A stretch of 64,000 nucleotides of DNA from assembly GCA_905234715.1 (NCBI GenBank), contig CAJOJI010000001.1, positions 8,582 to 72,581 on the forward strand, in the 5' to 3' direction. Shown here piece by piece: positions 4,300 to 20,825 of the stretch. This stretch comes from an uncultured Saccharofermentans sp. (GTDB lineage: Bacteria; Bacillota; Clostridia; Saccharofermentanales; Saccharofermentanaceae). The notes below the pieces were generated by a model. That model did no database searches. It had not been told where the DNA came from and saw only the letters and a program-made list of their open reading frames with translations. The translations under genes and the position numbers were made by a program. How positions within the stretch are numbered: the first letter of the stretch is position 1; each line of letters opens with the position of its first letter.

Positions 4300-5181
4300 T
4301 TAACCGAAGAGAGGTACTACTGCACCGTCGTATGTATCTTCGATGAACTTTGCAACTTCAGGTCCCTGAAGAACTTCTATGAGAGCCTTTACTGCAGGAT
4401 CGTTTGCCTTATCAGGTGATGTTGCAATGATGTTTCCGTATGTCTGTGCTGCAAGACCGTCGTTAGCTTCAACAGCAAGTGCCTGGCTTACGTGGAGGCC
4501 GCCTTCGATCGCATAGTTACCGTTAATGACTGCTACATCTACATCAGGGAGTGCTGCAACGAGCTGCTCAGGTGCAAGTTCCTTGAACTGAATGTTAAGA
4601 GGATTCTCTACGATGTCTTCTACCGTTGCATTGATTCCTGCATCGTCCTTAAGCTTGATGATGCCTTCCTGTGCGAGGAGGAGAAGTGCTCTTGCTTCGT
4701 TTGTTACATTGTTGGGAACTGCGATCACTGCGCCATCCTGGAGGTCCTTAAGATCTTTTACTCTGCCTGCATAGATGCCGAAAGGTTCATAGTGGACTGC
4801 GCCAACTGAAACAAGATCTGAACCGTTTTCTTTATTGAACTGTTCGAGGTAAGGAACGTGCTGGAAATAGTTTGCGTCAAGTGAGCCTTCGATAACGCCT
4901 GTGTTAGGTGTAACGGAATCTTCAAGTCTTACGATCTCGAGAGTGATTCCCTGCTCTGCGAGGATCGGCTTTGCAACTTCCAAGATCTCTGCGTGAGGTG
5001 TGATGTTTGCGCCTACCTTAAGTACTACATTAGCCTGTGCATCAGCCTGAGCTTCTGTCTGCGTATCGCTGCCTACATTTGTATTAACCTGTGTGGGCGC
5101 TGCTTTTCCGCATGCTGCGAATGATCCTGTGATTGCGAATAAAAGTCCTGCGGCAATAGCCTTCTTAATTATGTTTTTCAT
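4300..5181 (-). CDS. metQ: Methionine ABC transporter substrate-binding lipoprotein MetQ/NlpA
   Basis: Lipobox FAAC, PHAEILE, DANYFQHVPYL, AVPNNVTNEARALLLL, AVINGNYA. Confidence 0.92.
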   Translation of the reverse strand: MKNIIKKAIAAGLLFAITGSFAACGKAAPTQVNTNVGSDTQTEAQADAQANVVLKVGANITPHAEILEVAKPILAEQGITLEIVRLEDSVTPNTGVIEGSLDANYFQHVPYLEQFNKENGSDLVSVGAVHYEPFGIYAGRVKDLKDLQDGAVIAVPNNVTNEARALLLLAQEGIIKLKDDAGINATVEDIVENPLNIQFKELAPEQLVAALPDVDVAVINGNYAIEGGLHVSQALAVEANDGLAAQTYGNIIATSPDKANDPAVKALIEVLQGPEVAKFIEDTYDGAVVPLFG

Positions 5182-5246
5182 TTTGGTAATCTCCTTTAGA
5201 TGTGTTTTGTTTAGCTTTTCGCTTTAAGAATGATTTGTTTTGGCAT

Positions 5247-5280
5247 AAAAATGCCCGGTGAGTGATTTATCTCCCGGGCG
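5247..5280 (-). terminator. Attenuator terminator upstream of metQ
   Basis: mRNA GCCCGG-GAG...CUC-A-CCGGGC followed by AUUUUU. It lies between the leader stop and the metQ RBS. Confidence 0.8.
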
Positions 5281-5311
5281 CATGGCATATGTTCAAATGC
5301 AATTTACTGCT

Positions 5312-5437
5312 TTAACATCGATCGTTCTCAAGGCGTGAGGAATGTCTTCTTCCGCCCTGGGCCATATAGCGCACCCGGGAGCCGAGCATTCGACAACACA
5401 TCATCATGTTAGCTGTTGTATTAGTTGTTCTATACAT
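5312..5437 (-). CDS. Leader peptide A, 41 aa: MYRTTNTTANMMMCCRMLGSRVRYMAQGGRRHSSRLENDRC
   Basis: AAAGGAGG RBS 8 nt before ATG 5437, an MMMCCRM codon cluster, and a downstream terminator. Too short for the ORF track. Confidence 0.85.
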   Translation of the reverse strand: MYRTTNTTANMMMCCRMLGSRVRYMAQGGRRHSSRLENDRC

Positions 5438-5468
5438 TTCTCACTCCTCCTTTCGTTGTGATGGCGAT

Positions 5469-5503
5469 ACTTTACTACTCATAACCTACCATGTCAATAG
5501 GTT
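5469..5503 (-). promoter_or_regulatory. Sigma-A promoter (TTGACA-17-TAAAGT) with AACCTA-N9-TAGGTT operator
   Basis: -35 at 5492-5497, -10 at 5469-5474, perfect palindrome arms at 5483-5488 and 5498-5503. Confidence 0.75.
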
Positions 5504-5558
5504 TATTGAAATTTTTTTTCGCTTTCTTGAAAATTCCTGTTTTACTTGCTTTCGCGTA

Positions 5559-6122
5559 TTAAGAGATAACTGTCTTCTGCTTATTCTTATTTACTTCACT
5601 ATGCTGTGACAGCTGATACTTATCGAAAAGTTTTACGTACATAAGCGGTACTGCTCCGACGATCGCAGCACTTGCCTGGATACCGTTGGGAATAACCGAA
5701 CCCAATGCCGCTTCAACACCATACATAAACGGCAGTGATTCAAATGCAAAATAACCGGCGATCATGATGAGTTCGGCAATGAAAGATGCTGACAGTTTTC
5801 TTCCGAGGGAAACTTTTCCCTGAGCATTTCTCTTAAGCAGCAAACCTGCAATAAGGCCCATCACACCTTTGATGAGAAATGTAGCAACTGCATACTGCGG
5901 ATAACCGGCAAGAAGGTCTGCAAGTGTCGATCCGATCGCTGCGGGAACGAATGCAAAAGGTCCCATTATGTATGAAGTTACCAGTATCATAAGGTCACCT
6001 AAATTGATGTGTCCGATCGCTGTCGGAATGTGAAGTTCAGTGCCTACAAATATCAAGGCTGCGAGCACACCTGCGTATGCGATCTTCTTTAAATTGTTTC
6101 TGTTCTTGTCTTTACTGCTCAT
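5559..6122 (-). CDS. ECF transporter S component (HmpT/PdxU-like sequence family)
   Basis: About six hydrophobic helices, with AxxxA-type first helix, INLGD, GSTLADLLAGY and TFLIKG motifs. Confidence 0.85.
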   Translation of the reverse strand: MSSKDKNRNNLKKIAYAGVLAALIFVGTELHIPTAIGHINLGDLMILVTSYIMGPFAFVPAAIGSTLADLLAGYPQYAVATFLIKGVMGLIAGLLLKRNAQGKVSLGRKLSASFIAELIMIAGYFAFESLPFMYGVEAALGSVIPNGIQASAAIVGAVPLMYVKLFDKYQLSQHSEVNKNKQKTVIS

Positions 6123-6339: not shown

Positions 6340-6374
6340 AAGTTAACATGTATTACCTATCGTGTCAATGGGTT
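6340..6374 (-). promoter_or_regulatory. Sigma-A promoter (TTGACA-17-TAACTT) with AACCCA-N9-TAGGTA operator variant
   Basis: -35 at 6363-6368, -10 at 6340-6345, palindrome variant at 6354-6374 in the same register as the other three sites. Confidence 0.7.
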
Positions 6375-17755: not shown

Positions 17756-18910
17756 TCACGCCTTAACGGAATTCTCGATTGCCTGCTTCAGATCTGCGAT
17801 CAGATCATCAACATCTTCAATGCCTACTGAAAGTCTGATGAGTTCATCAACGATTCCTACTTCTTTTCTGATGTCAGCAGGGATTGCTGCATGTGTCATC
17901 GTTGCAGGATGGCATACGAGTGATTCAACGCCGCCCAAACTTTCTGCAAGAGTAATGAGCTGAAGCTTCTCGAAAAACAACTTGTAATCGTACTTGTCGT
18001 TAAGAACAAATGAGATCATTGCGCCGGCACCGTCAGCCTGCTTTTTCTGGATCTCATAACCCGGATCAGTCTTAAGACCGGGATAGTAAACCTTGCTTAC
18101 ATAACCGCTGTCCACGAGCCACTCAGCAACCTTCTGCGCATTCGCAACATGTCTGTCCATACGGACACCTAAAGTCTTGATACCTCTTATGATGAGGAAG
18201 CTGTCCCAGGGTGCAAGCACTCCGCCGATTGCATTCTGCAGATAGTAAAGTCTGTCCGCAAGCTGCTTGTCGTTTACTACCACGAAGCCTGAAATCGTAT
18301 CAGAGTGACCGCCGAGATATTTTGTTCCGCTGTGGATTACGATGTCTGCACCGAGCGTCAAAGGTCTCTGAAGATAAGGTGTAAGGAATGTGTTGTCTAC
18401 GATAACGAGCTTGTCGTGCTTCTTGCCGATCTTGGATACCGCTTCGATATCAGTGATCGTGAGAAGCGGGTTTGCAGGTGTCTCGATATAGATTGCTTTT
18501 ACATCATCGTCGATCGCATTTTCGACAGCTTCAAGATCGGATGTATCAACGATCTTGTATGTGATATTGAAGTTCTTGAAAACGTTGTCGAGGATACGGA
18601 ACGTACCACCGTAAATGTTATCCGAAACGATGAGCTTATCGCCTGATTTAAAGAGCGAGAGAACCGTGTTGATGGCAGCAAGTCCTGATGCGAATGCAAG
18701 ACCGTACTGTCCTTCTTCGAGATCTGCAATGAGCTTCTCGAGTGCTGCTCTGGTGGGGTTGCCAGTTCTCGAATATTCCCAACCTCTGTTTTTGCCTAGA
18801 CCGTCCTGCTTATATGTAGATGTCTGGTATACGGGAATGTTTACCGCACCTGTTGTCTCGTCTCCGTCAATACCGCCGTGTATAAGTAAAGAATTTCTTT
18901 TGTAACTCAT
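17756..18910 (-). CDS. mccB: Cystathionine gamma-lyase, MccB-like (Cys/Met metabolism PLP family)
   Basis: PVYQTSTY, EYSRTGNPTR, HSGTKYLGGHSD, LAESLGGVESL. Confidence 0.75.
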   Translation of the reverse strand: MSYKRNSLLIHGGIDGDETTGAVNIPVYQTSTYKQDGLGKNRGWEYSRTGNPTRAALEKLIADLEEGQYGLAFASGLAAINTVLSLFKSGDKLIVSDNIYGGTFRILDNVFKNFNITYKIVDTSDLEAVENAIDDDVKAIYIETPANPLLTITDIEAVSKIGKKHDKLVIVDNTFLTPYLQRPLTLGADIVIHSGTKYLGGHSDTISGFVVVNDKQLADRLYYLQNAIGGVLAPWDSFLIIRGIKTLGVRMDRHVANAQKVAEWLVDSGYVSKVYYPGLKTDPGYEIQKKQADGAGAMISFVLNDKYDYKLFFEKLQLITLAESLGGVESLVCHPATMTHAAIPADIRKEVGIVDELIRLSVGIEDVDDLIADLKQAIENSVKA

Positions 18911-18999: not shown

Positions 19000-19098
19000 T
19001 CAACATCGCACATCGTCAAGGCGCATGTTCATGCAGTCAAACGCCAAGGCCGATTCAGCCCCTGGAATATGCATTCGACAACACATGATCATTAACAT
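19000..19098 (-). CDS. Leader peptide B, 32 aa: MLMIMCCRMHIPGAESALAFDCMNMRLDDVRC
   Basis: GGAGG RBS 8 nt before ATG 19098. Shares MxMCCRM and RLxxxRC-stop with leader A. Confidence 0.87.
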   Translation of the reverse strand: MLMIMCCRMHIPGAESALAFDCMNMRLDDVRC

Positions 19099-19138: not shown

Positions 19139-19172
19139 ATTATGCCACATAAACCTACCTTGTCAATAGGTT
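19139..19172 (-). promoter_or_regulatory. Sigma-A promoter (TTGACA-16-TGnCATAAT) with AACCTA-N9-TAGGTT operator
   Basis: -35 at 19161-19166, -10 at 19139-19144, perfect palindrome at 19152-19172, immediately after the iscU stop. Confidence 0.75.
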
Positions 19173-20790: not shown

Positions 20791-20825
20791 ATCATAATTC
20801 GTTTAACCCACCAAGTCAATAGGTT
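20791..20825 (-). promoter_or_regulatory. iscS promoter (TTGACT-17-TATGAT) with AACCTA-N9-TGGGTT operator variant
   Basis: -35 at 20814-20819, -10 at 20791-20796, palindrome at 20805-20825. Confidence 0.75.

Follow-up and report, generated by a model that had tools for sequence, protein, structure and literature searches.

Classical leader-peptide attenuators, namely trpL, hisL, leuL, pheL and thrL of the Proteobacteria and the leucine-rich ilvBNC attenuator peptide of Staphylococcus aureus (PMC5794164), possess a short leader open reading frame (ORF) rich in codons for the amino acid of the operon, together with an intrinsic terminator and a mutually exclusive antiterminator, one strand of which is freed by the stalled ribosome. 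The same arrangement can be read in leader A, the element described here, which precedes the methionine-binding lipoprotein gene metQ in a stretch of 64,000 nucleotides (hereafter the window) from an uncultured Saccharofermentans sp. (GenBank assembly GCA_905234715.1, contig CAJOJI010000001.1, positions 8,582 to 72,581). We consider leader A to be, with a probability of about 0.68, an attenuator of transcription that works through the ribosome and responds to how much charged Met- and Cys-tRNA is available. By comparison with the classical examples, the family to which it belongs is predicted to sense two amino acids, methionine and cysteine; the ORF is long (about 40 codons) and crosses both the 5′ strand of the antiterminator and an inner hairpin; the antiterminator is a long-range helix that closes a multi-stem domain; and invariance at the nucleotide level extends to two codon triplets, in which one of the two rarest Arg codons is used. 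No region 1:2-type anti-antiterminator was found, for untranslated RNA the prediction is readthrough and not super-attenuation, and no Rfam leader family matches leader A.

Runs of Cys codons upstream of genes for sulfur metabolism also characterize the Cys-rich sensory short ORFs (sORFs) or leaders predicted in Actinobacteria (PMC1262725) and the polycysteine leaderless sORFs of mycobacteria, described as the 'Cys ribulon' by Canestrari et al. (10.1101/834739). The latter occur as several independent sORFs per genome with a response at the level of the regulon, and the window likewise has three such leaders. Those mycobacterial sORFs that have been studied by experiment are leaderless and exert translational control by sequestration of the ribosome-binding site (10.1101/834739), whereas leader A is led by a Shine-Dalgarno (SD) sequence and ends in an intrinsic terminator with a U-run; it also comes from another phylum, differs in sequence from the Actinobacterial sORFs, and has Met codons flanking its Cys codons. 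TnaC and SpeFL are similar in having a conserved leader peptide (24-40 aa) with an invariant C-terminal context at the stop codon, but they employ Rho-dependent termination and a free metabolite in the exit tunnel, where leader A has an intrinsic terminator, an RNA antiterminator and conservation at the nucleotide level.

The usual controls of met and cys genes in Firmicutes are S-box (SAM-I) riboswitches, Met and Cys T-boxes, and protein regulators. The S-box and T-boxes have in common with leader A their targets (metQ/metNI and transsulfuration enzymes) and the choice between terminator and antiterminator in a 5′ leader; they do not match it in sequence or structure, and sensing here is predicted to proceed through the translating ribosome instead of a SAM aptamer or tRNA binding. 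A search of the window against Rfam at gathering thresholds, and of positions 5100-5600 at E values up to 10, returned nothing relevant to the leader, and no Rfam element was found in 20 metQ loci lacking the leader. The three leader peptides gave no match in Pfam or NCBIfam. The sORF is almost never annotated: a protein database search with the peptide recovered two unnamed entries among 5.8 billion proteins, and protein matches give no picture of its distribution. In the searchable literature no earlier Met leader peptide was found, and full-text searching, the coverage of which is incomplete so that an earlier description is possible, revealed no Met or Met/Cys leader in Clostridia. The family is apparently undescribed. 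Many rumen and gut Clostridia appear to use a ribosome-sensing leader for two amino acids in place of the usual Firmicutes controls, and knowledge of the family improves the annotation of the sORF.

The leader ORF and its alternative helices

The leader ORF (5437-5312; this and all other parts of leaders A, B and C lie on the minus strand) consists of 41 codons followed by TAA (5314-5312) and specifies the peptide MYRTTNTTANMMMCCRMLGSRVRYMAQGGRRHSSRLENDRC. Its ATG is found 8 nt downstream of the SD sequence GGAGG (5450-5446) and about 25 nt from the inferred transcription start (~5462), making this an SD-led and not a leaderless ORF. The sensing cluster AUG AUG AUG UGU UGU CGA AUG (5407-5387) represents M11-M13, C14, C15, R16 and M17, with the three ATG codons at 5407-5399 and the two TGT Cys codons at 5398-5393. 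The last two sense codons and the stop codon, CGA UGU UAA (5320-5312), constitute a CGA-UGU-stop motif that is invariant among relatives.

To define these relatives, 80 metQ loci from rumen and gut Clostridia (records labelled Saccharofermentans, Ruminococcaceae, Lachnospiraceae and others) were collected by MetQ protein alone. In 44 of them metQ is preceded by an sORF of this type that has an SD and a start codon of its own, the consensus of the sORF being M-x(9-13)-(M)MCCRM-[LFP]-x-SR-[AV]..MA.[GA]......SRL..[DE]RC-stop. An exact DNA pattern derived from the invariant blocks identified at least 119 further genome stretches, again from rumen and gut Clostridia, and a covariance model recognized 115 copies in 99 of the pattern-found loci and the window. 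Among the pattern matches listed, the first downstream gene is MetQ-like in 63 cases and in 47 is homologous to the cystathionine-lyase-like gene of the window, the remaining classes being CysK-like (2) and alcohol dehydrogenase (2). Isolates of the Hungate collection are represented among the loci listed by Ruminococcaceae bacterium AB4001, YAD3003, YRB3002 and KHP2 and by Lachnospiraceae bacterium AB2028.

Several properties of these sequences are those of a coding region. The SD block GAAAGGAGG is kept in at least 42 of the 44 relatives, and 117 of 124 pattern matches have an ORF with its own SD and start codon. The distance from the Cys codons to the stop codon (63-87 nt) can be divided by three in 123 of the 124 copies; only one of 114 distinct copies has an in-frame stop, as against 72 and 98 in the other two frames. 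A single variable base (G/A) distinguishes the stop codons of the 44 relatives, 29 of which have TGA and 15 TAA. Most copies have their last Cys codon at codon 14-16, and peptide length is 39-43 aa; the N-terminal third is free to vary, while the SD and ATG are conserved. On this evidence the leader ORF is presumably translated in vivo. The codon cluster takes the form M(1-3)-C(1-4)-R-M in all members, most commonly xMCCRM. The three Met codons directly before the Cys pair, to which the earlier note attributed the response to both amino acids, are indeed present in leader A but are not a conserved feature of the family.

The 5′ arm of the antiterminator, CUCCCGGGUGCG (5381-5370), is situated within the ORF, from the third base of codon 19 to the second base of codon 23. 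It can form 12 pairs, two of them G:U, with UGCGCCCGGGAG (5282-5271), and the helix is extended inwards by AUGGC (5365-5361; helix 2, 93-95% paired in alignments) and GCCAU (5286-5282), the complete 3′ strand spanning 5286-5271. The terminator hairpin (5279-5253) has nine pairs, one bulged A and an 8-nt loop, with a free energy of -16.8 kcal/mol when folded alone; a simple terminator scan missed it because of the bulge. Its 5′ arm, GCCCGGGAG (5279-5271), is part of the 3′ arm of the antiterminator, and its 3′ arm, CUCaCCGGGC (5262-5253), is followed by the U-run UUUUU (5251-5247), the predicted 3′ end of the attenuated transcript. All 118 unique copies possess a hairpin of 6-14 bp starting in the shared CCGGGA arm and then at least five U residues within 9 nt. 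The ORF, the Cys codons, the terminator ending near 5247, the 12-bp pairing (its coordinates exact), the AUGGC/GCCAU extension and the inclusion of the terminator 5′ arm in the antiterminator had all been proposed from the sequence of this locus, and each is borne out here.

Folded in full, leader A takes the antiterminator form as its minimum free energy (MFE) structure (-74.2 kcal/mol; z = -4.46); none of 200 shuffled sequences folded equally well. When the 5′ arm is blocked in a constrained fold, leader A switches to the terminator. Untranslated RNA folds as the antiterminator in 98 of the 118 family copies, and this is also the RNAalifold consensus, although the terminator lies within the alignment as well. 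In a MAFFT alignment of 43 sequences the 16 antiterminator pairs are 97.2% paired, six of them with changes on both sides; no shuffle in 500 reached the observed values, and slid controls were 20-51% paired. The two helices are 93.6% and 92.9% paired among 114 distinct, model-aligned sequences, with compensatory changes at 13 of 16 pairs, in an alignment biased toward the structure to which the covariance model was fitted; RNAalifold recovered the P1 helix from the model-fitted alignment only in part. Divergent copies have altered arms, which still pair with their own terminator arm, as typified by CCGAACA/UGUUCGG (L093) and CGGGCUG/CAGCCCG (L145). Judged by comparison with relatives, the pairing is beyond chance since it is both conserved and covarying.

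The antiterminator encloses a probable internal hairpin, P2 (GGGCG...CGCC; 5357-5332), which is present in the MFE fold. The base of this helix (GGCG...CGCC) is 68% paired across the 114 sequences and shows changes on both sides at five of six pairs, which lends moderate support to its being real. A further hairpin, P3, in which GAUGUU would pair with the spacer after the stop codon, formed in 72% of copies and 56% of shuffles and is not claimed.

Proposed mechanism and its geometry

From the ORF, the covarying alternative helices, the constant spacing, the terminator, and the family with its target genes, all of which are shown here, we infer as follows how the ribosome stalls, which way the switch responds and how ribosome and polymerase are timed. 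Transcription would commence at about 5462, from a promoter that also bears an Rrf2/CymR-like operator, and a ribosome would load at the strong SD and translate the 41-codon leader ORF. When Met and Cys are plentiful, ribosomes would pass over codons 19-27, which form the 5′ strand of the antiterminator (5381-5361), and this strand would therefore be unavailable as its partner (5286-5271) leaves RNA polymerase. The terminator hairpin (5279-5253 with the U-run) would then form, transcription would end at about 5247, and the genes would be off. When either Met-tRNA or Cys-tRNA is scarce, the lead ribosome would stall in M-M-M-C-C-R-M (5407-5387) with its 3′ edge just short of 5381, and the arm would therefore stay free; the long-range helix would capture the terminator 5′ arm, polymerase would continue into metQ, and the genes would be on.

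Counted from the first base of its P-site codon, a bacterial ribosome shields approximately 12-15 nt downstream. In such a model, a ribosome with any of the codons M11-M17 in its A site would leave the arm free or nearly free, whereas two to three codons later it would be inside the arm. The last Cys codon and the antiterminator arm are separated by 11 nt (CGA AUG plus five bases) in all aligned copies, a spacing that was preset by the search pattern in the further copies, and the stop codon is 23-34 nt from the terminator arm in every copy. From this geometry it follows that the position of the arm just beyond the edge of a stalled ribosome, which the earlier note had pointed out in leader A, is a conserved property of the family. 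The targets suit the sensing of Met and Cys, since they comprise Met uptake (MetQ, MetNI) and the transsulfuration enzymes linking the two amino acids. The proposal of attenuation near Met and Cys genes is thus supported by the conserved ORF, the covarying antiterminator and the genes downstream. With more than 100 diverse copies, the family could serve as a model for the timing of leader-peptide attenuation in Gram-positive anaerobes.

A number of observations weigh against this reading, and the term 'textbook', applied to the geometry earlier, goes too far: the ORF is long and extends through the antiterminator, no region 1:2 anti-antiterminator was found, and the invariant codons are unexplained. 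Neither an anti-antiterminator of the 1:2 type nor a pause hairpin was found conserved in constrained and stepwise folds. These structures are features of the trp paradigm and are not universal among attenuators. With neither of them found here, untranslated RNA should read through, and termination would therefore require translation to pace the polymerase. Johnson and colleagues are said to have found in 2020 that transcription in Bacillus subtilis is faster than translation, which may or may not hold in these Clostridia. Furthermore, the ORF extends about 20 codons past the arm. Once at the stop codon (5314-5312), a ribosome leaves the arm uncovered, so that trailing ribosomes or folding kinetics would be needed. 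Nor does the sensing of codons by itself account for why UGU-CGA-AUG and CGA-UGU-stop are fixed at the level of nucleotides.

Lastly, the transcript evidence extends only to transcription of the leader and some readthrough of the terminator. Rumen metatranscriptome assemblies include contigs covering 5353-5455 of the leader and one contig (4999-5337) that spans from metQ across the terminator; with DNA carry-over possible, they show transcription of the leader and the passage of some RNA over the terminator, and nothing beyond this. The end of one contig at 5455, near the inferred start at about 5462, is a weak indication of where transcripts begin.

Invariant codons and rival explanations

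Codon usage was counted in the 44 ORFs, which had been chosen by peptide pattern only. UGU CGA AUG is invariant in 42 of them. All 44 have CGA both for the Arg that follows the Cys codons and for the penultimate Arg, and UGU for the Cys that precedes the stop. Ser-Arg is also UCC CGG throughout (44/44), but the invariance of UCCCGG is accounted for by the antiterminator helix. Of the Arg codons in the genes of the window, CGA (2.3%) and CGG (2.1%) are used least, and of the two Cys codons UGU is the less frequent (34%). Divergent copies retain both CGA motifs even where the sequence of the helix differs. A check by hand for pairing partners of UGU-CGA-AUG and CGA-UGU-stop gave none that was convincing: UGUCG/CGAUG amounts to 5 bp with two G:U pairs, UCGA/UUGA breaks down in the copies ending in TAA, and the resemblance of the motifs to a T-loop or a k-turn is unconvincing.

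These invariant rare codons present a sharp and testable puzzle. A speculative and rather unlikely answer is that the two motifs, of which UGU-CGA-AUG sits directly at the point of decision, form a second device, in which programmed slow, wobble-decoded codons (CGA by inosine, UGU by G:U) or a pause at termination would time the ribosome against RNA polymerase; alternatively, sulfur status might be read via the decoding capacity of particular tRNAs, for example through sulfur-dependent tRNA modifications, and not via Met and Cys charging alone. If true, slow decoding of this kind would be a new principle for leader-peptide attenuators, and it could explain attenuation in bacteria whose transcription outruns translation.

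The conservation of the peptide also raises the question of whether it acts inside the ribosome. If the leader were a TnaC/SpeFL-type sensor, working by the nascent peptide or by arrest at termination, MCCRM, SR and the C-terminal RC would have this function, and a ribosome parked at CGA-UGU-stop or at C-R-M by a small molecule, not by codon starvation, would decide the fold. For a leader peptide its conservation is unusually high, and both its length (39-43 aa) and the place of the cluster in it (codon 14-16) vary within narrow limits; its last two codons and stop are invariant, even in divergent copies, and the stop codon is always 23-34 nt ahead of the terminator arm. Most of the conserved residues nevertheless coincide with RNA helices (SR with the UCCCGG arm, MA with AUGGC, RL with the CGCC of P2), and Arg is encoded only as CGA where a constraint on the amino acid would permit synonymous codons. 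As the N-terminal third varies freely and a ribosome at the stop codon covers neither strand of the antiterminator, we regard an arrest peptide as unlikely. Third codon positions and rare codons are found among the invariant bases, a point in favor of an RNA element, riboswitch-like or bound by a protein or tRNA, in which the three-way-junction antiterminator and the invariant single-stranded UGUCGAAUG and CGAUGUURA bind a ligand or trans factor that stabilizes or destabilizes P1, the ORF being secondary and perhaps only unfolding the RNA. The invariant bases lie just 5′ of P1 and in the junction, the usual place of riboswitch cores, and the naked RNA takes one well-defined fold with a strong z-score. 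Against such an element, which is in our judgment improbable as well, are the conservation of frame, SD, start and stop far beyond chance, and the single variable base of the 3′ motif, which alternates only between two stop codons. Rfam, its SAM, T-box and leader families included, gave no match even at E = 10, and the motifs have no convincing partner, the pairing of P3 being barely above that in shuffles.

Finally, a peptide of 40 aa with conserved Cys residues (CC...C) might be a small functional Cys-rich protein, or the precursor of a peptide made by the ribosome and modified after translation (RiPP), that is co-transcribed with metQ and has no regulatory role. This is very improbable, given that all copies have an intrinsic terminator before the next gene, that the ORF overlaps a covarying antiterminator, and that codon choice is fixed at the nucleotide level while the N-terminus is unconstrained; no maturase genes were found nearby, nor any Pfam or NCBIfam match. 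Ribosome-mediated attenuation in response to Met- and Cys-tRNA is the reading that we prefer to all of these.

The probable promoter operator, leaders B and C, and neighboring features

The promoter of leader A is of the sigma-70 type (5497-5469), with TTGACA at 5497-5492, a spacer of 17 nt and TAAAGT at 5474-5469; ten of the 12 consensus positions are matched, and it is kept in relatives. Over the -35 hexamer lies an inverted repeat, ACCTA-N9-TAGGT, within the element AACCTATTGACATGGTAGGTT (5503-5483). Written as AACCTATTGACAnGGTAGGTT or as CCTATTGACAnRGTAGGT, the element has four copies in the window, where 0.01 is expected: 5483-5503 (leader A), 6354-6374 (leader C), 19152-19172 (leader B) and 20805-20825 (the nifS promoter), all on the minus strand. 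It is conserved upstream of nearly all members of the leader family, and CCTATTGACAnRGTAGGT is found in at least 120 further genome stretches from Clostridia and beyond, including Treponema metagenome-assembled genomes (MAGs). Elsewhere the genes behind it encode NifS, CysK-like, cystathionine-lyase-like and sulfate-binding proteins, CysD and cystine-type transporters, and it also precedes genes for Rrf2-family (CymR/IscR-like) regulators themselves. The association with sulfur and cysteine genes and with Rrf2 genes suggests that the element is most likely the operator of an autoregulated Rrf2 regulator of cysteine metabolism. No gene for such a regulator was found in the window.

At the promoter of leader A the operator would provide a second layer of control over the leader. 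The nifS-iscU genes (20763-19573 and 19560-19180, minus strand) are under the same operator without a leader ORF, and the two layers are therefore separable. Together, the leader and the Rrf2-type operator would define a two-layer sulfur regulon in organisms relevant to the nitrogen and sulfur metabolism of the rumen.

Between the inferred start and the SD, a (C/G)CCAUCA block is conserved in the short 5′ untranslated region (5′ UTR; window positions 5451-5466 and related loci). Pairing of this CCAUCA with AUGG or UGAUG is possible but inconsistent among relatives. The regulated gene, metQ (5181-4300, minus strand), encodes a MetQ/NlpA-family methionine-binding lipoprotein of 293 aa (TIGR00363, 4.6e-50). 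A gene for an iron-containing alcohol dehydrogenase (4276-3116, minus strand) begins 23 nt past the metQ stop codon and may be co-transcribed with it; in two related loci a homologue directly follows the leader.

Two more leaders were revealed when the window was searched for the string of Met/Cys codons and for Met/Cys clusters in short ORFs. Leader B (19172-18930), the sORF of which starts at 19098 and encodes MLMIMCCRMHIPGAESALAFDCMNMRLDDVRC (MLMIMCCRM...RC*), has ATGATsATGTGTTGTCGAATGC and CGATGTTGA in common with leader A and is a paralogue of it. It has a terminator of its own, AGCCCGGGA...UCCCGGGCU (in full AGCCCGGGAagaucgcucaUCCCGGGCU), and possibly a weaker antiterminator, UUCCagGGGCUG / CAGCCCGGGA. 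The operon downstream consists of a cystathionine gamma-lyase/synthase-like (mccB-like) gene (17756-18910), a CysK/cystathionine-beta-synthase-like gene, metN and metI. Leader C (6374-6164) is a different Met/Cys leader, with an sORF (6310-6233) for the peptide MKSIQATMICMCPALVTLPHMTGVI (..MICMC..) and a terminator at 6191-6164; CUCCCG inside the ORF can pair with the ACGGGAG arm of this terminator. It is located upstream of a gene (5559-6122) for an ECF-S-component-like protein of 187 aa and is kept in close relatives, for example as MKRITATMICMCCTEVVLPHMTGVIC. The covariance model search of the window recognized leaders A and B only.

Many loci carry two family members 4-5 kb apart (L122, L152, L145, L115, L118, L151 and L138, as well as L168, L093, L133, L164, L127 and L140). 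The second member is more divergent and often has a shorter peptide, MRYMCCRM...RCC or MKCLCCRM...RC. One copy in L133 is without CGA after the Cys codons and one in L138 is without the RC-stop ending. In a close relative (L005:2269-2436) the sequence 5′ of the MMMCC codons is replaced, with loss of the SD and the N-terminal codons, and the copy may be rearranged or degenerate, or the product of an assembly join. Elsewhere in the window an azaaromatic (yjdF) riboswitch aptamer (54349-54225, minus strand) scored 73.2 bits against a gathering score of 45 and is the sole Rfam match.

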